DNA of 64,000 nucleotides. Origin: Amoebophrya sp. A120. Lineage: Eukaryota; Protista; Dinoflagellata. The translations under genes and the position numbers were made by a program. Position 1 is the stretch's first letter; each line of letters begins with the position of its first letter. The notes below the pieces were generated by a model, which had not been told where the DNA came from, did no database searches, and saw only the letters and a list, made by a program, of their open reading frames with translations. This document shows positions 5,111 through 55,189 of this stretch, piece by piece. The stretch covers positions 6,488,828 to 6,552,827 of the forward strand of contig CAJINV010000004.1 in the NCBI GenBank assembly GCA_905178155.1, read 5' to 3'.

Positions 5111-5214
5111 GTACTTAGGCGAAGTGCTTCGGAGGTGAAGCACTCGGGCGAAGCACCTCGTCCTGGATGCCTCTTCTGGAAATACTAGGCGGCTTCGGGG
5201 GGATCCGGCCCCGC

Positions 5215-6086: not shown

Positions 6087-8081
6087 ATGCAGTCCCTGTT
6101 TCGAAATTTTACTTCGCGCGCTCCGCGATTAGAACACTCAAAGGCACTACTTCCCCGCACTTACCCCTCAATAGATTCAGCTTTTTCTTCCAAATCTTCC
6201 CCTGCACCATTGAATAGCAATTTTGTTTTCGCCGGCTCCGCACCGCAACAGCTTGTCGCAGCGACGTTCAGGTCTCAGCTGCGGTCGGTAACAACTACAG
6301 CCAATAGCGCCGTGCAGACACCGCCGCAGAACGGAGCCGCGCGCTCTCCTTCGCTCTGCCACAGGCCACCGCGACCTCGATGGTGTGAGTTTTCTAATTA
6401 CGCTGGCGCTTTTGGGGATCAATCCCTGATCATAAAGCAGCAGCAACACCCGTTCTACCGCAGTTTATTACGATCCGCATCACAACAACAGCTCCGGCAG
6501 TTCTCGAATTTTGCCAATGAGCAGCGGGACCACAACGCAATAAATTCTCCAGATCATCATGATAAAAAAGAGCTACAGCATGCCCGACCTAGTAAGAAAC
6601 AGCCGTTCCGCAAGCAGACGCGGCTCGGCGGCAAATTCCCGACCTTCGAGGAGGCGCAGCAGATGCCCCGGGATTGGCACGAGCTCGATAACGTGACCCT
6701 GTGGGTGCATTGCGGCCCGAAAGGCATCCACGACGCGAACGAAGAGCGCATGATCCGGGAGATTATGCGTGTGGACTGCATTGACTACTCCGAGGCGGTG
6801 CGGCGGCTGCTGGAGATGCAGGAGCACATTATCGGGGGGAAAACCATTTATCTATCAAAAGGAAAAATCCCCCCTCCCCATATCAAAACGAAATTTCTGA
6901 TGCTGGATTTGGGTACACAAATCAGCTTTGTATTGCAGGAAAGCATTGCGGTCAGATCCCCAGGCTAGGGAGGGGCGTATGCGTCTAGTTTTTCAGCATG
7001 GCAAGCGGCTCCGCTTTAGGCCCAGCAGCATGACAAATCGCTTCCACAATGGGGGGGAAGCTTCTGCCCTTGTCTTCTTGCAAAACAAATGTCATTTGTG
7101 ACCTCAAATCAGCAACAGAAATTTTCGGAAGCATGCCTTTTCAATATGGGGGGGGAGATTTTTCCTCTCAATATTATCGCCACTTGGGGCTGCTCCCGTA
7201 CAAGGGGGGGATGCTGTTGGCGGGCATGTTTGGCTTCAGCACGGTGCCGCTCATTTTCCACAAGGAAACGTATCATTTGTAAAACCGTCCCCACCTCCCC
7301 AGAGTTGTAATGCAAATCTGCATGCTGAAAATGTTTGTCGTGCGGAGTCCTATGGGAAGCAGTTTCTATTGGTGTTTCGCGATTTGTGATGCTCAGATCC
7401 GCATGGTATGCTAGATCTGTGATGCTGCTTGACTAGCTAAACACGACTACATTGCGAGCCCGAATTTCTCATGCGCAACTGCCAAAGCTGGTTGATTTGT
7501 GTAGCAGATTTGTCGTCTTGACTCTGGGGTGGGGACGTTTTTGCTCACCATAAAGCGGTGTTGTGGTTCAACGAGGTCTATGTCACGGCCGACGTTCCAG
7601 AGCCGAAGGATTTGGAGACCTGGCTGGAAGTCGGGAGCTTTGCGTGGCAGTGGATGGAACCGTTGATAGGTGAGATTTTTGTTTTCGAATGCAGATTCAG
7701 TTTGGAAGAACGCGAGTCATCAATTATATTTCAGAGAGTTCAACATCATCATCTTTCGAAACAGCTTGTTTCGAAAACCACAATCTGACCTATTCATGCC
7801 AAACAACTACTCACCCAGGCCAGCTCTCCTTCCTGATCCTTGTCGCCCAGTATATGCGAAATCAGTTGCTGAACCTGGGTCTCAAGCCGTACACGGGGAT
7901 GCTGATTAACTACCGGTGTTCGCGCGCCCGGGAGCGGTATCCCGAATATTCAGAGACCATTCTAACGGACTACGCCACAACGATCTCCTGGGAAGGACGC
8001 CGGCGCCCACACGACGTGCCGGGGAAGCAAATGGCCCGGCGACGGTCCGTGCGGCACTCTGCGGATGTCCGGCAGCATTGA
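6087..8081 (+). CDS. Uncharacterised membrane protein with long Ser/Arg-rich, possibly mitochondrial-targeting N-terminus
   Basis: Exons 6087-6852, 7179-7270, 7558-7669, 7819-8081; two introners plus one GT-AG intron (7670-7818); spliced ...GGKTIYRHLGLLPYKGGMLLAGMFGFSTVPLIFHKETVLWFNEVYVTADVPEPKDLETWLEVGSFAWQWMEPLIGQLSFL... Confidence 0.85.
6853..7173. mobile_element. Introner family D
   Basis: TIR tatcaaaaggaaaaatccccc..catat/atatggggg..gatttttcctctcaata; TSD ttatc/ttatc. Confidence 0.9.
7271..7552. mobile_element. Introner family J
   Basis: TIR tat..taaaaccgtccccacc/ggtggggacgttttt..ata; TSD aaacg/aagcg. Confidence 0.88.
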
Positions 8082-8545
8082 CGAGGCGAGAATAATTTTC
8101 CTTGAGAAGCTTTACGTGATAAGTGCAGTGGCACTTTTTCATCATGATGCGCAATTATTCCTAGAAAAGAGTGCGATGCTGAAAAGAAATCAGATTTTCC
8201 AACTGTTTCTGTTTATTCCCACACGCGTTTCAGACCCATCGGATTCGCCATTAAGTCCTTTGACGCAACAAGGCGAAATCATTTTCTAAACGTTGCAAGC
8301 AGGTTGACGAACTTTCTCTTCCCGCGCAAAACCATTGCCACAGTGTTCACAGTAGCTGTTTGCCGTGCCTGCGATGTGATTGAGTCGTGCGACGTTCAAG
8401 GACGATCTGTGATCGCGAGTGTCTGTTGCTGTCGAGTGATCATGTTGAGAGGGCAAGATAAATTACTTACTTCCTTCTATCTGGGCTTACTAGAATGAGA
8501 ATTCCGCCAAATAAGCTACAGCGTTAGCCAAGAGACGCATAAAGA

Positions 8546-8660
8546 ATGTCGGCACCTGCTTTCCTCCGGGCGTCGTCGCGGTCCGCGCCCCAGGAAGGTG
8601 GAGCATTAATATTCTCTACTTCCGGAGCATCGCCGTTCCAACTCGGTGAACGGAAAGGCG
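8546..8660 (+). pseudogene. Truncated duplicate of the 5' end of the LRR gene (9691), lacking the family A introner
   Basis: MSA...PQEG...STSGASPFQLGE matches MSA...PQEGAFCTSGASPFQLGE; similarity is lost downstream. Confidence 0.65.
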
Positions 8661-9690: not shown

Positions 9691-12600
9691 ATGTCGGCTG
9701 CATCCGTGCGGGCGTTGCGGGTGCCCCAGGAAGGAGCTTTCTGTACCTCCGGAGCATCGCCTATGGGAGTGTCAGGATCGAAATCGACCAAGTCGAAAAA
9801 TATGTAATGCATAAAATGCAGGGTACATAAGGCCTGTGTTGGAGAGGAGGCAAATGAGTCCGATTGCAAGCCTGTTTATCCCTAAACATGTACTGCCAGA
9901 GTAGCAGCGTGACAGATTGGATTTTGGTGCTCCCAAAATTTGTCATGCGCCAGTTGGAAACTGAGGCTCCAACTGGTATCGATTTTATGCATCACAAATT
10001 ATTTCGATTTTGTTGATTTCGATCCTGACGCTTCCATATCCCCGTTCCAACTCGGCGAGCTCGACGAGAACCAGCGGTATGACCGCAGTTGCGAACTCAA
10101 AACCGGCCGTATTACAATGAAAAATGCCCCCACCCCCAGCTTGGCAGCATTTGTAGTGCAGACCTTTCCAACAGAAACATTCCCCGTCTTGCATATCTCA
10201 GCATGACAAATTGTCCATGCTGAATAGGTCAAATTTGTGTTGCGAAGTAGCCTAACAGCAGCCGGATCTGTTATGCACAAGGCACCTTGATGCGCACCCA
10301 GATTCTGCATCAGAAACGCTCGCAATCCTTTCATGCATAGATAAAAAGTTCTTCATTTGAAAACCTTATGCGTGACAAACTTCTGCAAATTCCTGGGTGG
10401 GGGCATTTTTCATCGTAATAGGCCGGTTTCTGCGTCGCGGGCAGGCGGAGCTGGTGAGCTCGCAAGTCTGCTTCCGCCGGGACCTGGGGATTGCGACCTT
10501 CACCATGCTCTGCATCGCAAATATGTCTCGATCGGGAAAATATGGAATTTGTGATGCTAGCTTTCGATTATACAAAAACCTGTATTGCATGACCAGCAGA
10601 AGCTGTTCAGACCTTTTCCAAAGCTGTTCAGACCTTTTCTCATGCAGGACAGGCATGAGCAAGCCTTCGCGATGAAGCCTGTGATGCTAGAGCATGCATC
10701 AGTGACATTGCAGGCCCTGTAAAATCTGCATGAGAAACTCCCCGAATCTTCCAGACCCAGACATTTTTGCATTTGATACATGCCCGCGCCCTGTGCTCAC
10801 GTGTATGACCGGCTGCCGATAGAGGTATAATTTGTTGATGGGAAGTGTTGGTGTAAATTTGTCATGCTGGAATGCACAACAAGAGGTATTTGTCATGCCA
10901 AATTTGCACAACATCTAAGGTCCGCCCGGATTTCTTCAAGCTGTACCAGCGGATCAAAAACCCAGTGGAGTCTGCGCAGGCGTTATCCGGGGACAACTAT
11001 GTTGAACAACCTCACGACACCTTTTCCTCCGAGGTGATGGTGGCCATGCTGCTGATATGCTGTGCAAAAGTATCGTATTCGTATTGCAATCATGCATTAC
11101 ATATCTTTTTGTTAAGTCAAATCCGCATCACAAATTTCATTTTTCATCCTGCGGAAATTTGTAATGCATTTATACGAGTGCGATACTTTTTCAATGCATA
11201 GCTGACCAAGCGTCCCCCGGGGAAAGCCAGTACTTCGCACAGCGGGCGGGCGCGCGGGGGGAGTAGTGGTAGTGGTAGTGGTAGTGGAGGAGTGGTGCAG
11301 CAGGTTGCAAATATGTCGAATTCTTGTTCCACCAGTTGTACCAATGCATCCGGTATCAACTGCAAAAATGTCTAGGTCTGGAACGTTGCAAGACTTGTCA
11401 TGCAGATTTTCCATGACCTATGAGGTAGAGGTCTGGAATGCGAGACCCAGCATGACAGACTCTTTGAGGTCTCTGTCATGTCTTTCCTGCACGAGAAACT
11501 CCCTCTCAACTCGGTCAAAAGCGGACAGCTTTTGGTACTCACGCAACACAGATTTTTGCATGATTCAGATTTAGCATAACAGGTTTTATTCTTCCAGACC
11601 CAGACATATTTGCGATGCATATCCGGCAAGACGACCTCCTCGATGAAACCGCTGATCACCCTCCCGGCCCGGCAGTTGCAGCCGAACATGAAGCGGCTCT
11701 CGATTCAACTGGACTTATGGACCGCAAATATGTCTCGGTCTGGATGAATGGAAGGTTGGTCATGCACATTTTGCATGACCCATGATGTCTGTGATGTATG
11801 CTCGAGCATGACAGGTTTTGTGAGGGCTTCCTAATGTTGCCTATACCGCATGAGAAATGCACCCTCCGCGTAGCAGCTACTGGACTCCCCTCGCTGCCCA
11901 TGCAAAAATACAGGTTTTTTCTAGAATCGAAAGGCAGCATCACAAGTTGCATCCTTCCAGACATCCAGAGAGATTTGCACTCCATAGGACTCCCAGGCGT
12001 ACTACTCCTGTTGCAAAGTCGACAAAATCTGCCCGGAACTGGAATTGGCCAACTGGGTCGAGTATGCATTGCAAATATGTCTGGGTCTGGAAGAACGCAA
12101 CTTGTGATGCTAATTCTGGATAGTGCGAAAATCTGTGTTGCAATCTTACCAAAAGCTGTCCACTTCTGACCAAGCTGAGAGGGAGTTTCTCAGGCAGACG
12201 AGGCATGATAGAGGTCGGGGAGAATCTGTCATGCTGGGTCATGTATGACAGACCTCACGCGCCATGGAAAACCTGCATGACAAGTCTTCCAACCTTCCAG
12301 ACCCAGACATATTTGCAGTTGATATCGAGATTATCAAGACGTTCTCCGTCGAGCACGGCCGGTTCGGCAAGTCCGCAAGGCGGCAGGGCCCACACGTCAG
12401 GCGGATTTCCTTCGACGGACCGGACTTGGACAAAGTGACCACGGAGCAGCGGAGATTGTTGTCCACTGCGGACCACGAGGAAGCTCTCCGGCGCGACTGG
12501 ACCCGGATCTGCAACGGGAAGCTGATGCAGGTGCGGACGGAGAAAGCGGCAATTGCGCGGAAGAAAATTTTATGGATTGTAAAAATGTCTGGGTCTGGAA

Positions 12601-15600
12601 GAATGGAAGGTCTGTCATGCTGTGCTAGCATGACCCCAAAGTCTGTCATGCTCGTTACCCAAATGCCCCACTTTTCTGTCATGCATAAACGCGGTTTGTC
12701 ATGCAGAATACGCAACATCTAGCAAGGTAGAAACTTGTCATGCTGAGCAGTCACTTGTGGCGTCCTCAGGATTCGCCAACCAGCATCACAAGTTTCCAGA
12801 CCCAGACATTTTTGCAATGCATAAGTTTTTGGGGTCTCGCGCGACGAGGTGGAACAATTGGAAGCTGTAACTGTGGCAGAGATGAAGAAGAACTCAGCAA
12901 ATGACGATCACCGATTTTTTTCTGCCGGTGCCTCCAGCGGTTTTCGGTCGACCGCGCTCGCCAGCCAGCAGTCCACCAGAGGAGGAGGAGGATTACTGGG
13001 GGCAGGAAGCGGCACAAATACGTTTCCTCCATCTTCCTCTTTGCACGACCAGCTGGCCGCGGCGCTGTCGCTTTCCCCAACATCTAAATCCACTTCCACT
13101 CCGAAGATGATGAACTGGTTCTCATCCTCATCCGCGAATTTTTCAACAGCTTCTCCCACCACTGCAAAGAGATTTATTTCCCACCAGCAGCCTGCTATCA
13201 TCACCCCGCAGGACCCGCGTTGGATGGCGTGCGCTTGTCTAGTTCACCCTGCGATCGTATCAAATGCAAAAATGTCTGGGTCTGGGAGATTGCGAGATTT
13301 GTCATGCTAGTCTGGCATGACTCTGAATCCTGTGTTGCATGGCCGCGAAGAGCTCCTCCCCCCTGTCATGCAAAAACGCAGTTTGTCATGCGGAATACGC
13401 GACTCAGAACCACGAAAAAAACTTGTCATGCTTGGCAGCGCATCATAGTGAGTTCACTATTCCCTTTCTTGCATCACAAGTTTATTCAAGACCCAGACAT
13501 ATTTGCAATGCATAGATCGAAATCCTCGACTGTACGGGCGTGGCTCTGAAGAAGGACTATCGCATGCAAATGTGTCTGGGTCTGCAAACTTGTGATGCTA
13601 GTTTTTGAATTGCGGGCACATTGCAATACGCAGCTACGCATGACAAGTTTTTGAGCTACTAATATGTGTCTCGCTTTCCGCATGGCAAACTGCATTTTTT
13701 CGTGACAGGCAATAGAAGGGTAGTTCTTTCTTGCTTCATCTGCATTACAGATTTAAGGGGCATGTGAGACAAGCACGACAAATTTGCACTCTTTCAGACT
13801 CAGATGTACTTGCACTGGATAAGGACTCGCTGTGTTTGATTTCTGTCTTGAGACACCTACACACACTGATTTTGGACAAGAATCTATCCAGGAAAAAAAC
13901 TGTGTAAGTGTAACTTTGTAGGAAAAACAGCATCACAAGTTCGTTTTGCATTACAGGGAAAATCTGTCATGCGCAGCTAGCACGTGGAAACACGCATGAA
14001 AGTTGCCTGTGATGCACACCCACCATGACAAGCGTATGCCCTTTTGCATTTCCTGCATCACAGACTGACACTTACACGCTTTTTTTCTTGCATAGAATCC
14101 ACTCCTGGTTGCGGAAGACCTCCCCTGTCTGGCGGAGATTGAACAATTGGAAAAGCTCGAGGTCTCCTACTGCCACAATCTGACAACTTTGAACACCTTG
14201 AGTAAGTGCCCCATGCTGCGGGAGGTCGTGGCGCGGTGCTGCGACCGACTGGGTTGGGAGAGGAGAGCTGGTGGAAGTTTCGGGGGTGGTGCGTACGGTT
14301 CTTCGCAGTTGGGACGAGGGGGTGTTGGTGCGAGAAGTGGCGCTATGGCAAAAACGTTTGGGGACGGCTTTGGAGGTAGTGTTCGTTTTCTCATCTTGAA
14401 AATATTGTTGTGCTGTTGTGCATATTAAGCATAAGGTTGGCTACGAGAAACAGAATGAAAGTCACATGTTTATTTTCGATGAAATTCTCAACAGGCCGTG
14501 GTGGTCACCACCCGGGCGATTCAACATCCGTCTCGCACCGTCCGGAATCGGCCGCGTCGTCGGAGGAAGGCATGATTGACGTGGTCACGTTTAACCAGAA
14601 CGTATCCTACGCCGGATATCGCGAGGAAAAATGCCCCCACCCCCAAAGTTGCAAAAATTTGTGATGCAAAGTTTCCAAATGAAAACTTTTTTTCATGCAT
14701 GAAAGAAGTATGAACCTTTCTGATGCAGAGTCTAGGTGTGTGTTGTCGCATCGCTTGCATGACAAGCGCCGCTCTTGCTGGGATCTTTTGCAATACAAAT
14801 GTTTGCTATTCACGAGCGGAAAGCTGTGATGCTGATAGATGCAAGAGGGCGAGCGTTTCATTTGGAAAGGTTTCTTTGCAATACAAATGCTCCCAAGTTC
14901 GGGGGTGGGGGCATTTTTCATCGTAATACCGGAGGAAAATTGTCTATCGACACAGACCCGGAGAAGGAGAATGATGTACGGTTTGCGGACCAGTTATCGT
15001 CTAGTTTGAAGACGGGGAAGATAACTACTTCTTTTAATGGAAATAAAGGGGGTAAAATATTAAACGCGATCAGCAGCAAGCAGCATGATGCAAGCGAAGC
15101 CCATGTGGTCGGTCATCCTGCGACAAAAACTACAAGCGGACCAACACCATCTGTCCGCCTGGCGGAGAGCCCGATATCGTAAGGAAAAAATCCCCCCTCC
15201 CCATATCGAAAAGGCACACCGCAGAAAATTTGCCATGCTGATTGGTGACCACAAATCGTCTCTGTGTTGCAAGCAGGCAACCCCACAGGCCCCGCAGCAT
15301 TAGGTAGGCGGTTTGTGATGCTACTGGGCCTACAGCATGGACGTTTTTCATGCTAAGCACCTAGGCAAGCACGTCTCTCCTCGAGCTTGATATGGGCTTG
15401 CAGTCCCCTACTGCAAGAGTGATCCGATTTGTGTAAGCAAATCCAGCATCAGAAACTTCGTTTCGATATGGGGAGGGGGGGTTTTTCCTTTTGATACCCG
15501 AAAAAGAACAACCCCAGGCGGTGGTGGGATCAGGAGCTGAGCAAGGAGGCACAGGACCGCGCGCTATCACACAGAAAAAAGCCGGCAGGTCACATTTGTG

Positions 15601-18600
15601 ATGCAAAAGTAAATACACAAAAAAACCTGCATTGCATATCGTAAACAGCATGCTATGGGGCCGCCCATGACAGATTTATCTGTTTATTCATTTTTGCAGT
15701 ACAAATCTGCCCTGCTTGCTTTTTTCTGTGGGATACGCGCTGGTCGAAAAATATGTTCGCGGAGAAACGCTGTTAGAGCTTGCTGACAGTACTTCGAGCG
15801 CTGGTCAGTTTGGTGATGCAGTAGACCTCCATCAGCCGAGCGGAACAACTAAAACCTTGAGCAAGGGACTTTTCTCAACCGCATCGGACCTTCACATCCC
15901 GGACTCATCTTCCAATTTGGTCCAGCAGCAGCACAGCACGGCGTCGGCAGTGAGCATGAAGCAGCAGGTGGTGAAGGCGGTCAAAATCCAACCACCACTC
16001 TTATGGCGTTCTCAACTGTTACATTCTCAACTGTTACATGGGTTTGTGATGCAAGAGCCGCAACAGTGAAAGGGGTAAGCTTGCAACTCTCGCATCACAA
16101 ATTCGGCACAGATTTAGGCGCCGTTTAGCCCTTCGGGGATTTGTCATGCGAGGTAGCTTGATCGTCTGGTGGCTCATGGTAATTTTGCATGACAAACCAT
16201 GTAACAGTTGAGAATGTAACGTTTGAGAACGCCACCACTTTCCAGGTCGGAAAGCAAACTCGGAGCGAATGCGGCAGGGACGACGAATAATTTCAATTTT
16301 ATGGCGAATAATAACATGACAGGCAGCACATCAGCGACAGCACCGCACCAGGAAATAAACGAGCAGCACGAGAAACTTTTACTGGACAGCAAAACCGTGA
16401 AGATTCTGAATGTGGAAGACTGTCCGGAACTCGAAATCGTGCGGATGAACACGGTCGTCGAAACTCTCGACCTTTCGTATTTACCGAAAGTCCGGCAGCT
16501 CACCGCGAACTTCAAATGCCTCCGGCAACTGGATTTGAGTTTCTGTGGCGCTCTGAAGGAACTGAATTACACGACCGTTTTCGAGGCCGCGCCGTTACTG
16601 AAAATCGTCAACGCGGCGCACTGCGATAATCTCACGGCCGTGAACGTGCAGCAAGCACCGTGTTTGGAAGTTCTGCACTTGGCGCACTGCCAAAAGCTGC
16701 GGACCTTGGGGGAAAACTTGTTTCCGGCTGGATTGAAGTTCGTGGACTGCTACTGCTGTTTCGCCCTGCAAGAAACCGAGATCGCGAAGGTCTACGCGGA
16801 TATCGGCGCCGCGTTTTACAATTTCGGGGCCGGCGGTCGGGCGGGGTCCGCGCGAGGGGGAAGAGGAGCAGGAGGACAGCACGCACTGAAGGAAGGGTCC
16901 AAGGAAAGCAGCATGAGCCACGCGACGTCAGCCGGTACCAGCAATGTGCTGAATAAAGGCGCCGGGGGAAGTGTGGCGGGGAAGAAGACGTCGTCCAGCG
17001 CGGGGGGAAGCGAGGAGGACGATCACGCGGTGGATGTGTTGGGCAGCTTGGATGTGGTATTGCTGGAGGAAGTGCCGAGTCGGGCGCGGAAGGGCAGTAT
17101 CAAATGCAAAAATGTCTGGGTCGTTGGGAAGGAAGGAACTAGTGATGCGTCCCGTGGGTCTTACAAAAATCTGTGTTGCGTGATCACCAAAAGTTGTCCT
17201 TTTTTGACCAACATGAGCGGGAGTTTCTCCTGCAGGATAGGCATGATAGAGACTACTTCGCAGAATCAATCTGTCATGCTAGGTCCTGCGTTCCAGATGT
17301 CATGGGGCATGGAAAATATGCATGACAAGTCTGCATTCTTCCAGACCCAGACACTTTTGCATTTGATAGGCAGTTTGTGTCGGCTTTTGGACGCTTGGCA
17401 GGAATCCGATCTGCAAGGGCGTATCCTGTGCAAAAGTATCGTACCCGTATTGCAATCATGCATTACAAATCTTGTTTCCAAGGCAAATCTGCATTACAAA
17501 TTTTTATTTCTGATGCTGAGAAAATTTGTAATGCATTTATACAAGTGCGATACTTTTGCAGTTCATAGGGCGGAATTCGTGGCAGTAAGTATGGACTGAC
17601 GTTATTTTCAACATCTTGCGATAATTTGTGTAATATCTGTTTATCTGTTGTATGTTGCAACAACTTATAGGCACGGTCGAAAATGTGCTGTGCAAATGGA
17701 ATGCATGGATGCACCGAGTTGAGTAATATGACATACAGACCTAAACTTTACAAAATGTTTTCCCAGCTACCTGCTCCGCGTGACTTTCGTCCCGGGGACG
17801 TTTTCTAAGCGGTACCAACGGGGCGAAGAATTGATTGTCGCCGCTGACAAGCTCGGGTCTACATTCGAGTTTGTGAATTTCGAAGACCTCCGCCTCGGCG
17901 CCTTCCCCGGCGGCCACCACGCCAGCATTGCGGCGGACACAGCTTCTGTGTGCAGCGACCAAAGTTTACTGTTGCAAAGTAACAATCCGCTGGGAATCAA
18001 TCTACGCGAGCACCACCAGCCCATGTCCCCATTCGGGATTATGGCTGCTGCTGCAGTGCACAGTGGATTCGCGACCGCGTCTCCTTTGGGAGCCGGAGCG
18101 ACCAGTTCTTTCACACAGAATTACCTTGTCGGCGGAAATTCTTCCCCCGTGTCCTCCGTCGCCAGTTCCCGCGGGGCGAGCAGCTCGCGGTCGGCGAGTC
18201 CGCTACACGACAGCTCCTACATGTCGGGGCGGCGCGGGTCGGTGTTCGCGCGGTCGAGGGCTGCGCCATTGTTTGTTTGGCCAGGATCATCTTCAGGGAC
18301 ATCAACAGCAGCGGCCTTCACTGGTGGGACGAGGGGCAGCACAACAGCCTCCGTACAACAACTCCGGACACCGACTCCCCCAGCGGGTGTCAACACCGGA
18401 ACTACCTATCAAACTTCGGAGCTCACGACCCCGCAGGCGGCGCGGGCGAAATTTTGGAAGGCGTGTCAGAAGGCGGCCCAGTTGGCTATTCTAGTATGAA
18501 TTGCAAAAGTATCGTACTCGTATAAATGCATGACAAATAATTCCCTCGTATAAATGCATGACAAATTTTCGCGGTTCTGACCCTAGATCTCCTGCGTCCG

Positions 18601-31200: not shown

Positions 31201-34200
31201 GGCGCTGTTCGAGAATTTTCAGTGGGAGCAGCATTTGAGGGGGAATCCCTTCCCGGTCTTCACCTTTTTGGACCGGTTGCGGCCGGCGCTGATTCGCCAC
31301 GATTTCAAGGATGTGGATTTCAGTTGGAAGGAGCTGGACCCCAGAGGGGTGCAACTACTCAGTGAGGATCTTCCGACTGCTGATGTTGCATCTACTTCGC
31401 AGGAGCTCGCGTTGTCCGAGCCGCTTTCTCAGCTGCTCGCAGCCTGGAAAAACAAGCAGACCAGCGAGGTAAGAGGAGCTACAACTAAAGCCGGAACTTC
31501 TACAACAACTGCAGGTTCATCGAAAAAAGCCGTTGTCTATGCGACCATGGTCTTCGGAAGTTTCTTCAATCAATGGATCTCCGCCTTCGTGTACATGTCA
31601 GCCTACGCGAAGATGCAAACCCTCGTGTTGCTGTGCTTGGATGAAGAAGCGCACAAAAAATGCGTCACAACCGGTAGCGACGTGAAAAAAGAGCACAACT
31701 TTGACCTGCTCTGCCTCCAGGGACGGAAAAAAACCATTCTGCACAAATTCACGCTCCCGCTGATTCTCTTGAATTGGCTACCTGCAGGGATAGACGTTTT
31801 TTGGCTGGACTTTGACGTGTTCGTGATGCAGAACCCGCTGAAAAGTTTGGAAAACCGGGTAGAACAGCTGGAAGTAGATGATACAAATGATCAAGACAAG
31901 AAACCGGTCGAGCTCCTGGTGTCCGCCAGTTTCGGGGACGACTGCATCTGCACGGGCCTCGTGTTTATCAAATGCAAAAATGTCTGGGTCTGGAAAGTTG
32001 TGATGCAAGAAAGGGAGTAGTGAACTCACTCTAATGCGCTGCCAAGCATGGCAAGTTTTTTCCATGGTTCTGAGTTGCGTACTCTGCATGAGAAACTGCG
32101 TCTTTGCATGACAGGGAGGAGGAGCTCTTCGCGGCCATGCAACACAGAGTTCAGAGTCATGCCAGACAAGCATGACAAATCTCGCAATCTCCCAGACCCA
32201 GACATTTTTGCATTTGATAGTGTTCTTCCGCAACACAAAGACCGTGAAGAACTGGCTGTGGTTTCTATTAGGTTACTATCAAATGCAAATATGTTTGGGT
32301 CGGGAAGGTTGGAAGGCTTGTCATGCAGGTCTTCCAAGACGCGTGAGGTCTGTCATGCATGGCCCAGCATGACAGATTTTGTCCGACCCCTATCATGCCC
32401 CGTCTGTATGAGAAACTCCCTCTCAGCTGTGGTCGAAAGTGAGCAGCTTTTGGCAATCATGCAACACAGATTTTTGCACTATCCAGAATTAGCATGACAA
32501 GTTGCAATCTTCCAGACCTCCCAGACATATTTGCAATGCATAGTGACCTCTACGAGCACGTTCACTTGCACGACCAGCAGTTCTTCAGCATGTTCCTCTC
32601 CCCGAGGGAAGTATGCAAGAAAAAAACTGTGTAAGCGTAAATCTGTGATGCAGAAAATGCAAAACAGTTACACTTGTCATGCTCGACATGCATGATCGGC
32701 TCGCTCCCTATGTGTTTTCCTTTCCTATCTGCGCATAACAAGTTTTTCCTGTCATGGCAGACAAACTTGTGATGCTGTTTTCCCAAAAGACTTTACACTA
32801 ACACAGTTTTTTTCTCGGATAGGAAGACGTGGAGAAGCTGGTGGGCTTCGAAAAAGCGTCCGCGGACAAGCTGCTCGTGAAATACCTTTTACCTAGGCTA
32901 GAAGTTCTATGAAAGTGCAGAACTCCCCCTCCCCCTCATTTGCATAGCATGACCGGCAATACAAGCATCATCAAAAGTGCCGGTTTTGCATGACAAATTT
33001 GCACTGGAGTGTAGTGCTACTTGGGCTACCAGAACTTGTCATGCAAACAGTGCCAAGAGGCAAAGGGTGGATTGGGAATTTTGCATGACAAATGAGGGGG
33101 AGGGGGAGTTGTGCACTCTCATAAGTTCCGAAGTGGGGCATCTTGGATCCGGTTACGGAGTTCGCCACCGCAGCGGAACTGGAGTCGACCGGGTGGAGCG
33201 GGGAGTTGAAAAACGTCGTCATGTTTCACTTCCTGCAGGGCGACATACGCATTACAAATATGTCTGGGTCTGGTTAAGAAGGTAAGCTTGTGATGCGCAC
33301 TTCAGATCACGCGAAAATCTCTCATGCATGGACACTAGCAAAAGTTGCCCACTTCTTCTCACCAAAACACGCGATCTATCATGCGGATTAGGCATTGAGA
33401 AACCCCCTACTTCTCAAAATTTGTGATGCTGAGCCCCGTGATGTTCCAGGCCGTTTTGGCCATGCAAAACCTGCATGACAAACTTCTGCACTCTTCTTGA
33501 ATGAGACATATTTGCCATGCATACCACAGCGAAATCAACGAGAGCCACGGGGAACGGGAGTACGTGGCGAAAGCGAGGTATCCCACGAAAAAAGTTTTTC
33601 AGTTACACATTTGTTGTCAATTCAGCAACACAAATTTCTCTGCATGAAAGGGAAGACTTGCAATGCAGAAATACTACGGGAAAATACCTATGAAACGAGG
33701 CTACTATGCATATCCGGAATGACAGAGCTTGTGTGTCTTGCTTGGCCTGCAACACAATGTTATAACTGTAACACTTTTTTCTTGCGATACGAGGCTGGAG
33801 GAGAAGAAAAAGTCGCCCATGGAAGAATTCTTCGGGCCGGGGAGTTTCGATCCTGTGTCCAAAACGTTCAATTGGACACGGTATGCAATGCAAATATTTC
33901 TGGGCGGTCTGGACGAAAGGTGCAAACTTGTGATGCTCTTTTTCTCTTACACAAAAATCTGTCATGCACGAGAGACTGAGGATTTCAATTTCTCATGCTG
34001 TCTAGGCATTCTTTCTATCTGTACAAAGCCGCGGTCACATCATTATAACCTGTGATGCTAGAGGACCTAGACAACTGTACAGTCCTGACCTTCTGAGGCA
34101 TGGAAAAAAACCTGCATCGCAAACTCTTCGCTTTTCCAGACCCAGACTTGTTCGCAATTCATATGAGAGTCGAGGAGCTGATTTTGAAGTCACGCCGGGA

Positions 34201-34760
34201 GAAGCGGCCCGAAACGCTTATAACCCACTCAGGTGTGACAATCTCAAGCGTTACAATAGAATTTGAGATTTGTCGTGCATGATGAGCATGACAGACTCGC
34301 AGCGCGTTCCACTGTCTGCAATGCAAATTTCGCCAGATTGTAGTGGGGTTTGGAGCTCCGGAACTTGTCATGCGCAATCCTATGAGAATTTGCTAGATCA
34401 TGCACTCTTGCATCACAGATTTCCATATTCTATTGAGACGTTGGTTTGAGATTGTAACAGCTGAGCGCGTCATAATGCTGCTCCACTGCGGGTCTCTGCC
34501 CGAGGACTCCTTGGAAGGCGCGGCTGGTGGGGTTATGCAAGAAAAAAACTGTGTGAGTGTAACTCTGTATTGCAGAAAATGCAAAACTGTTACACTTGTC
34601 ATGCTGGACATGCAGCAGAGGCAATTTTCGTGCGTGTTTTCACGTACTAGCTACGCATGACAGGTTTTCTGTGTCATGCAGAGCAAACTTGTGATGCTAT
34701 TCCTCCAAGAGATTTACACTTACACAGTTTTTTTCGTGGATAGGTGTGGAGGTCGTGTGA
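28211..34760 (+). CDS. Nucleotide-diphospho-sugar transferase (GT77/Nucleotid_trans-like) with long N-terminal region
   Basis: Frame restored by removing 11 introners; motifs LVLLCLDEEAHKKC, LHKFTLPL, VFWLDFDVFVMQNP (DxD), CTGLVFFRNT, HDQQFF, VVMFHF; hydrophobic segment near N-terminus; stop TGA 34758-34760. Confidence 0.82.
30572..30888. mobile_element. Introner, chimeric C-type left end and D-type body/right end
   Basis: Left tattgcaatgaaaaatgcccccacccc, right ggggagggggg..attttatcttttgata; TSD ctatc. Confidence 0.86.
30965..31114. mobile_element. Introner family B (reverse orientation to 11056)
   Basis: TIR tatcctgtg/cacaggata; TSD acact/ttact. Confidence 0.86.
31966..32219. mobile_element. 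Introner family K
   Basis: TSD gtgtt; sits inside the GLVFFRN motif. Confidence 0.92.
32277..32542. mobile_element. Introner family K
   Basis: TSD gttac/gtgac. Confidence 0.88.
32612..32821. mobile_element. Introner family L (reverse orientation to 13885)
   Basis: TSD ggaag. Confidence 0.9.
32908..33123. mobile_element. Introner family G (reverse orientation to 21587)
   Basis: TSD agttc. Confidence 0.9.
33246..33523. mobile_element. Introner family K (diverged)
   Basis: TSD cgaca/ccaca. Confidence 0.84.
33579..33789. mobile_element. Introner family N (L/M-related termini)
   Basis: TIR tatcccacgaaaaaagtttttcagtta/taactgtaacactttttcttgcgata; TSD cgagg. Confidence 0.87.
33882..34163. mobile_element. 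Introner family K (old; TSD eroded)
   Basis: K-type TIRs; flanks cacgg/tgaga no longer match, but removing element + 5 nt keeps the frame. Confidence 0.78.
34219..34474. mobile_element. Introner family I
   Basis: TIR tataacccactcaggtgtgacaatctcaa/ttgagattgtaacagctgagcgcgtcata; TSD acgct/atgct. Confidence 0.85.
34534..34742. mobile_element. Introner family L
   Basis: TSD ggggt/ggtgt. Confidence 0.88.
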
Positions 34761-36191: not shown

Positions 36192-39184
36192 ATGGTGTCC
36201 AGCATCGACCATGACGGACTTTCCGCGCTGCAGCGCCAGATTTCCCACGTCGACGTGGGGGAGAGAATTCTCAGCGGGCGGGTGCAGCTGTTCCATTTGG
36301 GTAGGAATATCCCCTCCTTCCAGTCCTTCGCCGGATCGACGAACGACGTCAGTGAGGAGGTGTTTCACAGATTCAAGCACCACTCACCCCTCGGACCGCT
36401 GAACAACCCCGCGAATAAGGCGCTGCTGAATCATTTCATACAGGTATTTAGAGCCTATGATATATACCTACACAGGAGGCTCCTGTGTTTGAGTACCTAC
36501 AAAGGACCACGAGGCTGTGTTTTATTTTGCTGATTCTCGATAATTGGAGTAGTTTTGCATGGAAATGATCCTTGCTGCGCATGATGCATGCACAACATGA
36601 ACATTCCGCAGTAAAACTGTTTATGGAATGAAATTTCATACATCAAAACCAAACCAGGTTCTCGGCATCGTCTTCCCCGAATACGACTACACCTCCCTCG
36701 CCCCCGACCGTTTCGAACCCCAGGACGACGGCTTGTACGTCGTGAACCAAATCAACTGCAACTGTTTCTCACTAGCAGAGAGACAACAAGCGGGATTCAT
36801 TAACCGCTTTTGGCAGGTGATAAGAGACGTTATCGACATCGGGAAGTGCAAGGTGTTTCTGTACAAACCGGAGTCCCTCGACGAGATCCCGCACACGCCG
36901 CTGTTCTCCTTCTTTTACTTCTTTCTGGACCAGAAAGACAAGAAGCTGCTGTTTCTGTTCGGGTCAACTAGGTCCAAGTACCAGGGGGTCTTGCGGAACG
37001 ACGATTTGTCCGACATTTCCGACGGTGTTGGATCCTCTTCCCAAGGAATGATGTCAGATGACTACGCAAGTAGCAGCGGATTGAGTACGAACGGAGGTGG
37101 CGGATCTTCTACCTCTGGTTTAAACCACCAGAACAGGTCCAGGTATCGACAAAGTAGACGCATATGCATTGCAAATATGTCTGGGTCTGGAAAGTTGGAA
37201 CTTGTAATGCTGGCCTTACATTCCTATAAAATCTGTATTGCATGACTAACAAAAGTCGTAGCCTCTCTTGTCATACAAAAACGCAATTTGTCATGCGGAG
37301 GGCGGATGAGAAAGCGTCCTGCAAACTTGTCATGCTCTGCTACATAAGGAAGTGTGTTCCTTATGCACATTTTAGCATCACAAATTGCCAGACCCAGACA
37401 TATTTGCATTTGATAGCGCAGCAGCTACAGCAAAAGAGGGAGTAGAAACAACGCGAACAGCTCGTCGGGAGGCGGATTCGGTGGAAACAACAGCAGTAGT
37501 GCGCAAGAACAGTTGATGTCTTCGTCCGCTGGCGTCTATCAAATGCAACAATGTCTCGATCTAGAACAGTGGAACTTGTGATGCGTTTCTTGTATTCCCG
37601 GAAAATCTGTGTTGCATGATGAGCAGCAAAAGTAAAAGAGGGGCTTGCTTTGTCGTGCAAAAACGCAATTTGTGATGCGTGGTAGGCATCAGCAGGCGTC
37701 TCTAAAACTTGTCAGGTTGCTTGGCTGCCATTGCAAGCGCTTCAATCATGCTTAATTCAGCATCGCAGACTTCCAGACCCAGACATATTTGCAATCCATA
37801 GCGTGAGTAGATACGGCTTTGTGCACACGACCTCGACCTCGAGCACCGGCGCGTCGGGGGGCGCGGGGAGTGATCTGAACCACAACTCGGAGAGGACGAA
37901 TACTTCTGCCAGAGCAGCTACGAGAGGACGTGCCGCCGGCCGGGGCGCAGGAACAAGCGCGAGTGCGAATAATTTCGCTGGTGTACTAGCCGCAGCCGAG
38001 TGTAGTAGTCACATCGCGGAAACGTATCCTGAGTAAAAACGTCCCCACCCCATAGTTGTCATGCAGTTCTGCATGCTGAAAATGTTTCTCATGCGGAGCC
38101 CCATGAGAAGCATTTTCTAGTCGTGTTGTGGAATTTGTGATGCTAGAATCAGCATGATGTGCTAGATCTGTGATGCTGCTGAACTAGCTAAAGAGGATCA
38201 GGCTACGAGGATAAACTTGTCATGCATAACTCCCAAAACTTGGAGATTTGTATTGCAGATCTGCCTACTTGACTATGGTGTGGGGACGTTTTTTCTCATA
38301 ATAAAACCGGCTCTTTGTATAACCACCACCACCGAGGACTTCAGCATCTGAACGCGCCGATCATACCCGCCATTCTGGGCCACGATCACTACCCGAACCG
38401 GCTCGCGTATGGGGGTGCCAGGATTTGGAATTGACAAAGTTGAAAATAAATTTGTGATGCATAAAACCGATACCTCCAGTTGGAAGCCCAATTTCCAAGC
38501 GGTATGCATGACAAATTTCGGCACCGTCTAAATCCACTTCGTCATGTTGTTTGCGGACAGAGGGCGTCTTTTGTCATGCTACTTTCGCAGCTCTATCGCA
38601 GACCCCAAACAGGCTGACCGTCGGCCTCGCTTGCCATCCCTGCAAGAGAGGCTCTTCTTGCATTGCAATTTACGCATGAGGAATTGTTGCAAGTTTGTCG
38701 ACTTCAATCCTGACGCTAGTATATCGCGTCGCAGTCCGAAGACATGATCTCGGACTCCTCCAACATGTCCATGCGGAGCTCCCCCAACTCCTCCGGCGGG
38801 TTCCAGGGCGATTTATTCTGCGTAAAAACGCCCCCACCCCACAGTCAAGATGGGAAATGTGCTAGACAAATCAACAAGCTTTCGTTGTTTCGCATGACAA
38901 GTTTGTCCGCATAGTGTGATCCTGTTTAGCTAGTTCCATTAGCATCACAGATCTAGCATATCATGCTGATCCGAGCATCACAAATTACGAAACACGACTA
39001 GGAAAGGCTTTTCATGGGGCTCCGCATGAGAAATATTTTCAGCATGCAGATTTGCATTACAACTATGGGCTGGGGACGTTTTTACAGAGGATGGGATTAC
39101 GGCTTCCAGTACGTTTCGGACGACAGCGAAGGCAGCGCCGGGGAAGACGCCAGCGGCCAGAGGAGCGGCCAGTTGAAAGGATGA
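36192..39184 (+). CDS. MAF1: Repressor of RNA polymerase III transcription Maf1 with long low-complexity C-terminal tail
   Basis: Maf1 boxes: SPLGPL...LIQVL-like FIQVLGIVFPEYDYT (PDYDFS box), FWQVIRDVIDIGKCKVFLYKP, LFSFFYFFLDQKDKKLLFL; GT-AG intron 36444-36657 plus 5 introners; stop TGA 39182-39184. Confidence 0.88.
37163..37415. mobile_element. Introner family K
   Basis: TSD acgca/gcgca. Confidence 0.88.
37537..37800. mobile_element. Introner family K
   Basis: TSD gcgtc/gcgtg. Confidence 0.88.
38025..38303. mobile_element. Introner family J
   Basis: TSD aaacg/aaacc; aaaaacgtcccca TIR. Confidence 0.88.
38408..38723. mobile_element. Introner family A
   Basis: TSD tcgcg; body homologous to 239-546. 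Confidence 0.9.
38814..39093. mobile_element. Introner family J (reverse orientation to 38025)
   Basis: TSD cgatt/ggatt; right terminus TA>TG. Confidence 0.85.
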
Positions 39185-42254: not shown

Positions 42255-42555
42255 TTCGTTGCTTTGCTTTTTTTCCTTGGCTATCTTCTCTTTTATCTAT
42301 CTTGTAGTTGTAGGCCACTATTATTTTTTTCCTCTTCCATATCCATTGCCATTGCCGTTTTTCACCGTTGCCATTGCTGATTTCGCGACCAGGCGGTCGT
42401 TTTCGACCGTCTGGTGTGACGGCGTGGAGCTGGAGCCTGATCGCGCCATGTTCAACGCGATGATTGACGACCATCTTGCTTCCGGCAGAGAATGGAAGGC
42501 CGACCTATTACAGCAGATGGCAGAGGCTTGCTTTGAGCCGGACGAGTCGCGCTAG
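42255..42555 (+). pseudogene. Rearranged fragment duplicate of the PPR gene 3' end and its downstream region
   Basis: 42424-42513 encodes VELEPDRAMFNAMIDDHLASGR, matching VEPDRAIFTAMIDYYVSSGR (41597-41680); 42255-42385 resembles 41815-41925. Confidence 0.7.
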
Positions 42556-43312: not shown

Positions 43313-46300
43313 ATGTCGGAACTGATTCGTCTTCGTTCTATGGAGCGGCCCGTGCTGCCACAAGTCTTGAAAGGCGCGGTCGTTCCGGTGGAAACGGGTA
43401 GTTCGTTTTCTTCCTCTAGTACAAGCTCCACAACATCACCGGCTAAACAGCAGAAAACAACTCCAGTAGCAACTGTATCATCCACCGCATGTGAAAGAAG
43501 CGGAGGTGCGAAGAACGCAGGTTCTAATTCCTCGCAAGTAGAAGTAGACCACGTTCAACATCAACATCTCTCCCAGCCAGACAAGCCGCCGCCCATCATC
43601 CAGCTGAAGTGCTCCCCATTTGGCGCGTATGAAAAGCAGAAGTGCTCGATCGGCGTCCTCCTCGCGTGCGACCGGTGTCCCGGGGCCGGGACGGAGAACG
43701 TGATTCTCGGCGTGCAGCAGCGCGTTGCCTCCTCGGTGACCAGAGGGATGTCCGGCCGGGCGGTTGGGTTTCTAGACGGATCGGTGGGGCTGATGAAGGG
43801 CAACTATATGAATCTAGAGAGTACTGGTGGAATTATAGGTGGTGGCACGAGCAGTAGTTCATCTGGCGGGGGGGCGTCTTCATCTTCATCAAGCCATTTT
43901 CCCTCGTCGTCTTCCACGAGTCAATATCTCAACTGCGGTATGCGTTGCAAATATGTCTGGGCCGGGAAGGATGCAACTTGTCATGCTACCTTTGGAATCT
44001 ACATAAAATCTGTATTGCATGAACAGCAAAAGAGGCGCAATTTGTGCTACGCGGAGAGGTGGGTATTTCTCATGCGGTATGAGCTGCATCAGAAAACCCT
44101 CACAGAATCTCTGACGCTCGGGCATGCATCACAGACTCCATGGGTCATGGAAAATCTGCATGACAAACTTCCAGACCCAGACATTTTTGCATTTCATATG
44201 CGGCGGTGCCCGCATGCTGGGTTTCAAGCCGTTCCGCGGCAGAATTTCCGACCGCGACATCGCGAAGATCGCGCAGCGGTGCCGGGAGCTGGACTTGCAG
44301 GGCTTAGTGATCGTCGGCGGGCTGGAAGAGGTGCTCGCGATGCAGGAAATCGCCGACAAAATCAACAACTTACCGCCGGAACTCATCGCGCAGGCAGCAG
44401 CATCAAGCTCAACATCTGGGGCGGCGGGTAATAATAGTAGTACGAGGGGCACTACAACTTTTACTACTGTCGGCACTACTAGCTCTTCCTCGTCGATGCG
44501 GAACAGCAGTAGTCCGGTAACCAACGCGTTCTCGCAGCCGCGAACGCCGAACACGGCGGGGTCGGCTTTCGCGAGCGGGAGGGAAAGCAAAACCACGACA
44601 CCCGGAGGACCTGCGGCACCGGGTTCGGCAGGCCCAAGTTCCGCCCAGGTTGTCGTAAACGACCAAGCGTTATGGATTGCAAATATGTCTGGGTCTGGAT
44701 GATTGCGAGACTCGTCATGCATATTTTCCATGGCCCATGATGTCTCTGACGCATGCCCTAGCATCACAGATTTAGAGGGCTTTGCGATTATGCCTCTGCC
44801 GCATGAGAAATGCCCTCTCGGCGTAGCCCAAACTAAAGTCCTCTTGCTGGTCATGCAATACAAACTTTTTTAGAATCCAGAGACAGCATCACAAGCTTAG
44901 AATCTTCCAGACCAAGACACTTTTGCACTTGATCAGCGTTCAATATGCCCATGAAAACCAGTCCGAACCAGGCGCAGACGCCAAACAGCAGCCAAGGCCT
45001 CGCGCAGCAACTGCAAAATGCAAATCCAAATCCGCCCACGACGCAGCCGCACCACGTCACAATCGTGGGGGTTCTCCAGTCCCCGAACCGCACTGTGAGA
45101 CTTCCCCCCTACGTGCCTGTCACGCTCGGGTTCGACTCCGCAAGGGGAGTTCTGTCTGAGGTCGCCGGGAACATTTCGGTCGACGCCCTTTCCAGCGGGA
45201 AGTTCTACCACTTTATCCGCTGCGGGTCGACGGCGGTCACCCTGGAGATCGCGCTGCAGGTGGAGCCGACCATCGTGATTGTGAACGAGGAGGTGAAGAA
45301 TGGGAAGCAGTCGCTGACCGAAATCGTGAAAAGCATCGCGGAGCAGATTTTGAAAAGAAGAGACGAATTTGGTTTGAATTCCGGGGTTATTTTACTATCC
45401 GACGGATTGGTCGAGAACGGGCTGGTGCAGACGGAGATTTTGAAATCCGAAATCGCACATCTGCGGAAAGCCTTCAAGGTCCGGACCGAAGCGGAATTGT
45501 TGCTCGGCGGCAGTAGTAGTAGTTCTACTGCGACAATTATATCCGGCTCGTCGACCAATTTGCTCGCAGACCGGACAACTTCCTCCGCGTCGCAATTGTC
45601 TTCCGACGCAGCAGGTAGTTCTGCTGGTGCAGCAGGTCCACCCGCACAGAACAAGAATCCCGGGCTCTCTCCCGCCTCGCGCGAGCTGTACGCCATGCTG
45701 CCGGCGGACTGCCGGCAGGCGCTGCTGTTTCGGGATGACGTGCGGGGGGAACCGCTGTTGCCGCAGGTGGACGCGGAGAAGTTGCTGGCTCGCCTCGTCC
45801 GGGAGGTATCCAGGAAAAAAATTGTGTAAGTGTAACTGTGTAGGAAGAACAGCATTACAAAGTAGCTTTGCATTACAGGGAAAATCTGTCATGCGCAGCT
45901 AATACGTGGAAACACGTATGAAAGTAGCGTATGACGCAGATCCAGCATGACAAGTGTAAACAGTTTTGCACTTTCTGCATCACAGATCCACACTCACATA
46001 GTTTTTTTCTTGCATAGGAGGCTTTGTCCCACGACTGGGCGGAATTTATCCCGCGGTACCACAACATCGCGGTCGAGGGAAGGTTATCAAATGCAAAAAT
46101 GTCTGGGTCTGGAAGATTGGTAAGTTTGTCATGCGGGTTTTCCATGACCCACACGGTCTGCCATGCACGGCCTAGCATGTTGACAGGTTCTGTGAGATCT
46201 CTATCATGCCGCTCCTGCATGAGAAACTTGAGTCTAAACTTGTTCAAAAGTGGACCTCTTTTGGTAATCATGCAACACAAATTTTTCCACGATCCAGATG

Positions 46301-55012: not shown

Positions 55013-55189
55013 CCCAAGCAGCCCTGGCCTAGTGTTTTCGTCTCGCAAGGCGAGCGCCAAAATTGCCGGGGAAAAATTTCCGCAGAAAAATTGGCTCTGG
55101 GGGTTCCAATTTCAAAACTTCCGAAAACCGTAACACGCAGACAACGAAAGCCCCGCCCGGAAGTTTCCCGGCTAAATTTTCCCAAGCTT

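Follow-up and report, generated by a model that had tools for sequence, protein, structure and literature searches.

Introners of Amoebophrya sp. A120 leave RNA exactly in either orientation and are cut at a fixed position with polar constraint

Short introns derived from DNA transposons, known as introners, have been described in Amoebophrya sp. A120 (Farhat et al. 2021, PMC7789003). According to the searchable text of that report, they carry a signature of TAT, seven variable bases and AAA, are flanked by 5-nt direct repeats, measure 145-331 nt, form many families with non-canonical ends and lie in co-oriented genes, and a hairpin was proposed for them. The same text reports no transposase in the A120 genome, calls the splice sites variable and their borders unknown, lists NT donors only in Table S4, and states as open how Amoebophrya removes its mostly non-canonical introns without detectable U1. 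Two-way insertion, a fixed 1/4-nt cut and a polar constraint are not stated in its searchable text, where 'orientation' is used of genes only (four places in the main text and three in the supplement). The searchable literature, with subscription papers and figures lying outside it, likewise holds no statement on the orientation or cut position of Amoebophrya introners.

Three other systems are close. The introner-like elements of Polarella glacialis and Aureococcus anophagefferens are also DNA transposons with target duplications that serve as introns either way, but the available text describes GT/GC/GA-AG sites supplied by the element or the duplication, a need for particular duplication sequences and a biased orientation (bioRxiv 10.1101/2020.10.14.339549), whereas in the Amoebophrya locus studied here the duplication is unconstrained, AG is unneeded and there is no significant orientation bias. 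The nonconventional introns of euglenids share non-GT-AG ends, inverted repeats, slidable direct repeats and a paired motif whose spacer to the cut is shorter at the 5' end than at the 3' end; as far as the consulted portions of these reports go, they differ in a purine preference at the first exon base, in pairing that was shown experimentally, in reported circles and in belonging to an unrelated lineage (PMC12501133; PMC11282704). Their motif is CAG/CTG with spacers of 3 and 5-6 nt (PMC12501133, in part), compared with TAT/ATA and spacers of 1 and 4 here; in place of the euglenid signature 5'-N3CDG...CHGN5-6 with R after the cut, our elements end N-TAT...ATA-N4, and their first exon base is at background. 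The introns of Fritillaria borealis are derived from MITEs and have non-canonical splice sites that are the terminal inverted repeats, but AG-AC and AG-AT ends dominate there and dependence on a U2-type spliceosome has been shown, according to the accessible text (PMC11282704; bioRxiv 10.1101/2025.08.15.670264).

The window, meaning the whole 64-kb stretch of DNA that was analysed, contains 54 TAT...ATA elements; all lie in plus-strand genes, and a target duplication of 5 nt borders each of them. Together with 272 copies from a related assembly they form a set of 326; the strand of the outside copies was assigned by a coding model, not by RNA, and 49 of 321 were discarded in that step. Clustering at the thresholds used gives 18 families, with 2-91 copies each, and 37 singletons. 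Positions 1-3 of the terminal repeat are TAT in 97-100% and positions 11-13 are A in 93-97% of the 326 copies, at both ends. The window elements thus show what defines A120 introners: TAT, seven variable bases and at least three A, a direct repeat of 3-5 nt where exon and intron meet, families and non-canonical removal from RNA. At the system level we see no difference from the published description, as far as its searchable text goes. They belong to the Amoebophrya A120 type of short introns that derive from DNA transposons; the elements, and introners inserted both ways, were already known, and the class is not new. The DNA-level transposition proposed in an earlier note on this sequence is supported by terminal inverted repeats of 30 nt, by 5-nt duplications whose composition resembles that of exons, by two paralogues within the window that have empty sites and by an orientation of about 50:50, which are also the features of MITEs, non-autonomous DNA transposons (inverted repeats, a duplication of fixed length, empty sites and random orientation). 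One paralogue (7829-8010) is the empty site for elements 239 and 599, and the other (near 8565-8650) for element 9762.

Removal of each element with one duplication copy yields long plus-strand ORFs, including 1318 codons across 11 elements and a stop-free 1115 aa from 9691 to 17580. The claim that all host genes lie on the plus strand stands, because element-free ORFs, Pfam matches and skipped GT-AG introns all read in that direction. The second host gene (6088..8081, +, 3' end approximate) holds introners 6853-7173 and 7271-7552 and canonical intron 7670-7818; its first exon has no Pfam match, and its spliced length of 1507 equals that of X1 record 1. A gene with weak LRR matches (9691..22078, +) carries 25 introners from 9762 to 21587, among them 10110, 10509, 14617, 15175, 15565, 18495, 20380, 20572 and 21081, with canonical introns at 10825-10919 and 14376-14494 and further ones inferred near 17590-17766 and 18890-19022. 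The gene at 22777..25704 (+) contains introners 23177-23493 and 23556-23819 and matches contig piece 22669-23171. A gene with a nucleotide-diphospho-sugar transferase domain (28211..34760, +) holds 11 introners from 30572 to 34534, including 33579 and 34219. The MAF1 gene (36192..39184, +; Pfam Maf1, E 3.5e-18; joints in 4/4 runs) has canonical intron 36444-36657 and five introners (37163, 37537, 38025, 38408 and 38814). The phosphofructokinase-like gene (43314..50050, +; Pfam PFK; homologues P0001 and P0002) has seven whole introners from 43939 to 48902, including 47587-47917, and a truncated one starting at 50054. The nearest named homologue is from Perkinsus.

The earlier note had listed families A, J, L, G and B as occurring in reverse complement, and all the named pairs hold; they still do once each terminal repeat has been trimmed by 35 nt. 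Scores after this trimming are given here as forward/reverse-complement/shuffle mean; signs give the orientation within the family, every element being read on the plus transcript. They are 16/172/-37 for family A (239..546, +, the reference orientation, duplication GGGGA, situated outside the note's interval 7271..46016, against 9762..10038, -), 2/269/-28 for family J (38025..38303, +, against 38814..39093, -, both in MAF1), -6/120/-23 and 0/162/-19 for family L (13885..14094, +, against 32612..32821, -; 45807..46016, +, in the PFK-like gene, against 34534..34742, -), -14/172/-40 for family G (21587..21846, +, against 32908..33123, -) and 4/91/-10 for family B (11056..11200, +, against 30965..31114, -). 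Further plus copies are 38408..38723 in MAF1 with a diverged 3' repeat (family A), 599..748 and 17422-17567 (family B, the latter oriented as 11056), 7271..7552 (family J) and 20106..20324 (family G).

Additional opposite pairs had been missed. In family F2, 13258..13514 (+) is opposed by 31966..32219 (-; 91.6% identity, interior identity 90%); 12571-12823, 19490-19742 and 48902-49158 lie as 13258 does, and 13558-13821 is reversed. In family F1, 32277..32542 (+) is opposed, by sequence comparison, by 12063..12324 (-; 86% interior identity); 11354, 11716, 19159, 23556, 44671, 46085 and 48606 share the orientation of 32277, and 17098-17368 and 43939-44198 are reversed. The other pairs are 6853 vs 15175 and 10110 vs 14617. 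The per-family orientation ratio, which the earlier note had asked for genome-wide, shows both orientations in 12 of 13 families among the 326 copies, near 50:50 and with no significant bias (chi-square 12.6, 11 df, p 0.32).

For splicing, two stretches covering 45 of the 54 elements were compared with contigs X1-X4, which are unstranded, come from one study and are presumed to be RNA, a presumption backed by skipped GT-AG introns. Among the joints listed, taken from the best 15 of 75 and 15 of 18 contig matches, all 22 skip exactly one element plus 5 nt, and at six further elements a contig piece ends right at the element boundary. The GT-AG introns 7670-7818 and 36444-36657 are missing from the same contigs as the elements. 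Exact joints occur in both orientations in families J (7268>7556 at 7271 and 38019>38304 at 38025, the latter in 4/4 runs; reversed 38809>39095, 4/4 runs), G (21582>21848 and 20101>20326; reversed 32901>33123, X4) and F2 (19484>19743; reversed 31960>32220, X4; contig piece 12826-13252 for 13258). In family L, RNA supports the reverse copies (32606>32822, X4; X4 record 16 resumes at 34746 after the copy at 34534, with a spliced length of 1699 equal to the record length), protein homology supports forward copy 45807, whose removal joins a stretch aligned with P0001, and the ORF supports 13885. Family A has joint 38402>38724 at 38408 (4/4 runs), and its copy 9762 is supported by the ORF 9691-17580, open once the element is removed, and by the empty-site paralogue. 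For family B the support is the ORF, of 1318 codons in the case of 30965. In family F1, joints 32274>32546 and 19153>19423 fall at 32277 and 19159, and removal of 43939 leaves a continuous stretch that aligns with P0001. The locus is not covered by raw-read runs X7 and X8, their 188 and 4 reads being partial fits at element positions.

These results show that the elements leave RNA exactly, whichever way they are inserted; splicing of one orientation only, which had been named beforehand as an adverse outcome, was not seen. Nor was the use of cryptic GT-AG sites, the other such outcome, since 18 of the 22 joints cannot be read as GT/GC/GA-AG; the remaining four can be read as GT-AG or GA-AG. 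Among all copies, 296 of 326 are unreadable in this way and 30 are readable. The elements do not have U2-type GT/GC-AG ends, of which only the U at +2 is retained.

Mismatches between the two duplication copies, found at 100 of 1630 sites (6.1%), fix the position of the cut within the duplication abcde. In all 16 informative copies the mRNA has a, b, c and d from the left copy and e from the right, and a single cut, at position 4, fits 16 of 16 (p 8e-4 against a uniformly random cut). At 7271 the mismatch is at c and the left copy is kept; at 38025 and at 37537..37800, a MAF1 introner with joint 37531>37801 in 4/4 runs, the mismatch is at e and the right copy is kept. The 22 listed joints by themselves give position 3 or 4, as does element 33882..34163, in which 4 of 5 duplication letters have diverged (joint 33879>34167, with GT-AG at 4). 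Contig pieces starting at 16241 (X1 and X4), behind element 16002..16236 (3' end ACC, mismatch at d), set the cut at 4, the lower bound of at least 4 coming from this one element as a contig piece. The intron is e-TAT...ATA-abcd, with 1 nt between the 5' cut and the 5' repeat and 4 nt between the 3' repeat and the 3' cut.

With the intron so defined, all 326 copies have U at +2 and A at -7, while the mirror positions show 9 and 7 changes; because the duplication mismatch of 6.1% indicates that the copies are old enough, 0 of 326 reflects constraint. The first intron base and the last four are unconstrained. In the sense-oriented copies, changes at the 5' versus the 3' end number 0 vs 9 at position 1, 2 vs 5 at position 2 and 7 vs 0 at position 3, and the 272 outside copies give 0 vs 6 and 5 vs 0 at positions 1 and 3 (p 0.03 and 0.06). 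These counts are small, position 1 having been spotted first in the window and position 3 later, and the within-family tests (p 0.007 and 0.03) do not survive correction for the 30 positions scanned. Splicing here is polar, with mirror positions of the repeat constrained differently. In the accessible part of Table S4, the nine commonest splice-site types of A120 all have T second (GT, CT, AT and TT), and those of A25 are all TT (PMC7789003). At the 3' cut there is no excess of AG (24 observed, 22.9 expected), and acceptor dinucleotides match the exon background (p 0.86). A preference for G at the first intron base appeared in the window (24/54, p 0.04) but not outside (89/272, p 0.43), and a drift of the right duplication copy towards AG, also suggested by the window, was not upheld among the 272 copies from outside the window. 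The first intron base does not covary with the last (p 0.77), and four canonical introns inspected by eye showed no branch motif in common at a constant distance.

The earlier note had taken the occurrence of both orientations as a sign that a symmetric terminal hairpin is recognised. This reasoning fails, because an inverted repeat offers the same linear signals at each end either way and because the two-way introners of Polarella and Aureococcus are reported to use ordinary polar splice sites. We lean slightly towards a modified spliceosome that measures from two fixed bases, a U close to the 5' end of the intron and an A close to its 3' end, and that is assisted by the fold-back. U+2 would stand in for the U of GU, and A-7 may be the branch nucleotide or another measuring point that sets the 3' cut without AG, which is the least secure step. 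With mirror-image ends, each end would bear both signals, so a flipped element would look unchanged to a polar machine. The fold-back may help bring the ends together but would not be the sole signal; the evidence for this helper role is mixed. The spliceosome as the machinery would be consistent with nearly all spliceosomal proteins and U2, U4, U5 and U6 being reported in A120 and with the removal of Fritillaria inverted-repeat non-canonical introns by the U2 spliceosome, whereas U1 snRNA was not found in Amoebophrya (PMC7789003 and bioRxiv 10.1101/2025.08.15.670264, as far as their accessible text goes). More tentatively, the palindromic transposon end could hold a two-letter polar code, U+2 and A-7, with a U1-less spliceosome branching at A-7 and cutting the 3' side seven bases on, without AG or G+1, so that any insertion, in any orientation or target, would be a perfect intron.

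A dedicated non-spliceosomal or heavily rebuilt machine, reading the paired stem, a short tag and fixed spacers and joining at the stem base as proposed for euglenid introns, would keep the hairpin of the earlier note in polar form, and we regard it as a real but doubtful possibility. Predicted folding far exceeds that of shuffles both ways (median z of -6.8 for sense strands and -6.4 for antisense strands; z < -2 in 51 and 52 of 54), with a mean predicted pairing probability of 0.7-0.9 at stem positions 8-25, but it falls to 0.5-0.6 at the terminal three pairs, and sense folding is not better than antisense (178 vs 148, p 0.18). Element 33246..33523, with 0.1 expected end-to-end pairs by prediction, is spliced exactly (joint 33242>33526), as are 20380, 38814 (3' end ATG, not ATA) and 16002 with a broken terminal pair; element 38408, with its diverged 3' repeat, has retained-intron contigs in one sample, a weak hint in the other direction. 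In the internal motif TGT.ATGC/GCAT.ACA, decay by wobble-forming transitions is weakly asymmetric (118 vs 78, p 0.005, post hoc) and decay by transversions is not (137 vs 130), but G-U pairs show no excess over A-C mismatches, either within the repeats (217 vs 220; within families 166 vs 157) or among the consensus pairs of the interior (277 vs 249, p 0.24). A G-U excess at repeat position 21 (28 vs 4) disappears within families (3 vs 1), and the bases just outside the repeats show no pairing preference. At 3' position 1, six of nine changes keep a U-G wobble and are thus also compatible with pairing; pairing alone is disfavoured at position 3, because U>C is tolerated there although it breaks the pair, and A>G, which would keep a wobble, does not occur. 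In favour of such a machine, AG and G+1 are both dispensable here, and the Euglena code, in which pairing is needed, likewise sets a paired motif off from the cuts by a spacer that is shorter on the 5' side than on the 3' side (PMC12501133, in part).

An ordinary spliceosome using cryptic or duplication-derived GT/GC/GA-AG sites, through which two-way introners elsewhere do work according to the available text (bioRxiv 10.1101/2020.10.14.339549), would account for the 4 joints and 30 copies readable so, but it is contradicted by the other 18 exact joints, the 296 remaining copies and the background acceptors, and is very improbable. Least credible of all is that there is no splicing and the contigs stem from an insertion-free strain or allele (DNA or RNA) or from DNA-level excision: X1-X4 are presumed RNA, but they leave out GT-AG introns, agree with the exons throughout (0 other letters), miss every element crossed and hold a left/right mosaic of duplication letters consistent with one cut, contigs that retain an intron agree with the window at >=99%, and tens of thousands of such introns were validated by RNA-seq in A120 (PMC7789003, searchable text).

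What this locus adds to the known introners is a concrete rule, of which we found no statement in print: the cut has a single position, neither the donor U nor the A that precedes the 3' cut by seven bases varies, and orientation and target sequence make no difference. The rule points to the site at which a branch point should be sought and to the bases worth mutating. If it is true, the mass invasion of coding exons would be explained, because every insertion would be spliceable.

Self-BLAST of the window and a scan for inverted ends flanked by direct repeats yielded 54 whole introners between 239 and 49158, plus one truncated copy at 50054. The 54 elements are 145-331 nt long, start with TAT and finish with ATA, and each has a 5-nt flanking duplication (letters abcde) and inverted ends some 30 nt in length; only 13 of 211 internal-motif matches in the window fall outside them. 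Amoebophrya introners are an already known system: the TAT, seven variable bases and AAA at the element ends are the signature published for strain A120, and the same paper (PMC7789003) already describes the elements with their repeats and puts forward the hairpin idea. In each of the 11 family majority sequences inspected, an 8-nt internal motif (TGT.ATGC) and its reverse complement turn up two to eight times, frequently around positions 42 and 74 as counted from the element ends; the motif is a candidate site for a transposase or a splicing factor.

The reverse-complement pairs claimed in the earlier note all align reversed after trimming of the repeats, with scores far above those of shuffles, and there are several further pairs in opposite orientation, of which 13258 vs 31966 is the closest (91.6%). 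Cutting out each element with one duplication copy leaves long open frames on the + strand, where Pfam places Maf1 and PFK, as had been claimed for the host genes. In the PFK-like gene, alignment with two homologues (P0001, P0002) shows that element removal reunites conserved motifs; the forward family L copy at 45807 is one such case. Only 17 of the 54 introns are a multiple of three in length and 44 carry stops in every frame, so most are incompatible with retention. For 239, 599 and 9762, the corresponding empty sites can be seen in two insert-free paralogous stretches of the window. Two duplicated gene fragments (144-953 vs 7829-8081; about 8565-8650 vs 9700-10060) each have one copy without introners, so that either the insertions postdate the duplications or introns were lost. 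The 873-codon ORF at 1548-4169 and the intronless pentatricopeptide-repeat gene at 40781-41734 (Pfam PPR_2, E 8e-29), which has a short degenerate duplicate near 42431-42519, contain no introner. In 50054-56010 the PFK-like gene stops within the truncated introner and gives way to a GC-rich tandem array of units roughly 175 nt long, after which further repeats extend to 58250; the break is a rearrangement or an assembly join.

Contigs of four runs (X1-X4), guessed to be RNA and coming from one study with two samples, were compared with 4300-24200 and 30400-39400, which hold 45 elements. The 30 joint rows listed comprise 22 that skip one element, two that skip GT-AG introns and six cross-matches between copies. 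The skip equals the element plus 5 nt in all 22 element joints listed, and the computed spliced length equals the record length for three contigs (1699, 2293 and 1507), a fourth being off by four slidable duplication letters at the contig start. Joints occur in both orientations for families J (7271 and 38025 vs 38814, the latter two both in MAF1), G (20106 and 21587 vs 32908) and F2 (19490 vs 31966), which contradicts splicing of one orientation only; for L, A and B, the contig rows listed give RNA support to one orientation or none, and the remainder have ORF or homology support. That introners act as introns in both orientations is a real and well-supported observation.

Retained-intron contigs from sample S1 cross both borders of the MAF1 introner at 38408-38723, which has a diverged 3' repeat. 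Their depths in X1 are 52 and 47 vs 75 for the spliced joint, contig depth being a weak measure, and are higher than those of retained contigs at 38814 (8-9) and 37163 (3-4); X4 has no such contig for 38408 among those listed. At 11535-11611, 188 raw RNA reads of run X7 (90-99% alike) join an F1-type element end to foreign flanks; they represent a related copy that stayed in the transcript of some other locus or strain.

The cut was located from copies whose two duplication letters differ, where the mRNA reveals the letter kept. In 16 of 16 informative copies the mRNA carries left a, b, c, d and right e, a fit with a chance of 8e-4 under a uniformly random cut; the listed joints alone place the cut at position 3 or 4, and element 16002 sets it at 4. 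The intron is therefore e-TAT...ATA-abcd; its overhangs are unequal, at 1 and 4 nt, and removal is thus polar even though the element itself has no polarity. PMC7789003 calls the intron borders unknown, and all donors listed in its Table S4 have T second in both strains (A120 and A25, the latter with repeats that begin TTA), which fits the deduced cut. In 33877-34168, where the intronic duplication letters have diverged at four of five positions, the intron ends can now be read as GT-AG, which may mark a move towards canonical splice sites. The GT-AG intron at 10825-10919 begins G-TAT and contains two copies of the introner internal motif; it is possibly an old introner eroded to a canonical intron.

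A terminal-motif scan of metagenomes led to one related assembly (accessions JACKZZ01; at least 132 loci, 395 kb), where window families recur with identity up to 95.7%. A boundary method that is blind to the first three positions, and that places all 54 window boundaries correctly, found 321 elements among the loci listed. With host strand called by a window-trained coding model, 38 copies in weak loci and 11 at odds with their own locus were dropped; the 272 kept were pooled with the 54 window copies (326). Of the families with at least three copies, 12 of 13 occur in both orientations; the five largest split 39:52, 25:19, 16:25, 9:20 and 13:11 (pooled test against 50:50, p 0.32), and the base composition of the duplication letters matches exons. 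Such near-even orientation and exon-like letters are as expected if a TIR DNA transposon inserts at random. The DNA-level transposition proposed earlier is upheld by the inverted ends, duplications, empty sites and two-way, roughly 50:50 orientation.

Symmetric pairing alone would constrain mirror repeat positions equally. Among the 326 copies, repeat positions 1 (the outermost base), 2 and 3 carry 0, 2 and 7 changes at the 5' end, against 9, 5 and 0 at the 3' end, and the first U of the 5' TAT (U+2) and the first A of the terminal ATA (A-7) are intact in 21 of 21 copies with altered TAT or ATA. These counts are low and in part post hoc, and they do not reach significance once corrected for 30 positions. 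The outside set alone gives the same pattern (0 of 11 changes at the U+2 and A-7 positions, p 0.001). At the 5' end of the transcript, a perfect seed motif is commoner (57 vs 33, p 0.015). Mirror positions are thus unequally constrained, and symmetric pairing is not the only thing that matters.

Spliceosomal catalysis depends centrally on the U of GU and on a branch A. The most likely reading, which we favour by a modest degree of confidence, is a modified spliceosome that would read U+2 as a remnant of GU and set the 3' cut by its distance from A-7, the fold-back serving as a helper. Each palindrome end would carry both signals, so that orientation would be irrelevant.

The main rival, a structure-guided route as in Euglena, is a serious but less probable candidate. 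The Euglena route has a spacer geometry like that of the introners, and pairing is required there according to PMC12501133; one introner copy without predicted end pairing is exactly spliced. The elements are predicted to fold strongly in both orientations, and wobble-forming changes in the internal motif outnumber mirror changes (118 vs 78). No wobble excess was found in the repeats or interior pairs, and the sense strand folds no better than the antisense strand. The earlier interpretation was half right: transposition stands, but recognition of a symmetric hairpin does not follow from the two orientations, since inverted ends offer identical linear signals whichever way round they lie; the evidence for a hairpin role points both ways. 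Cryptic GT-AG use, named earlier as a possible refutation, is nearly excluded, as only 4 of the 22 listed joints slide to GT/GC/GA-AG. That the elements are not spliced at all is also nearly excluded.

Two-way introners with polar sites are reported for Polarella and Aureococcus in a preprint (bioRxiv 10.1101/2020.10.14.339549), and PMC9860276 describes an introner search that permitted opposite-orientation copies. For Amoebophrya, the literature searched (figures, bioRxiv supplements and subscription papers aside) yielded nothing on two-way insertion, on a fixed cut or on a polar constraint. The sharper rule of a fixed cut, U+2 and A-7 renders the splicing mechanism of these introners testable.
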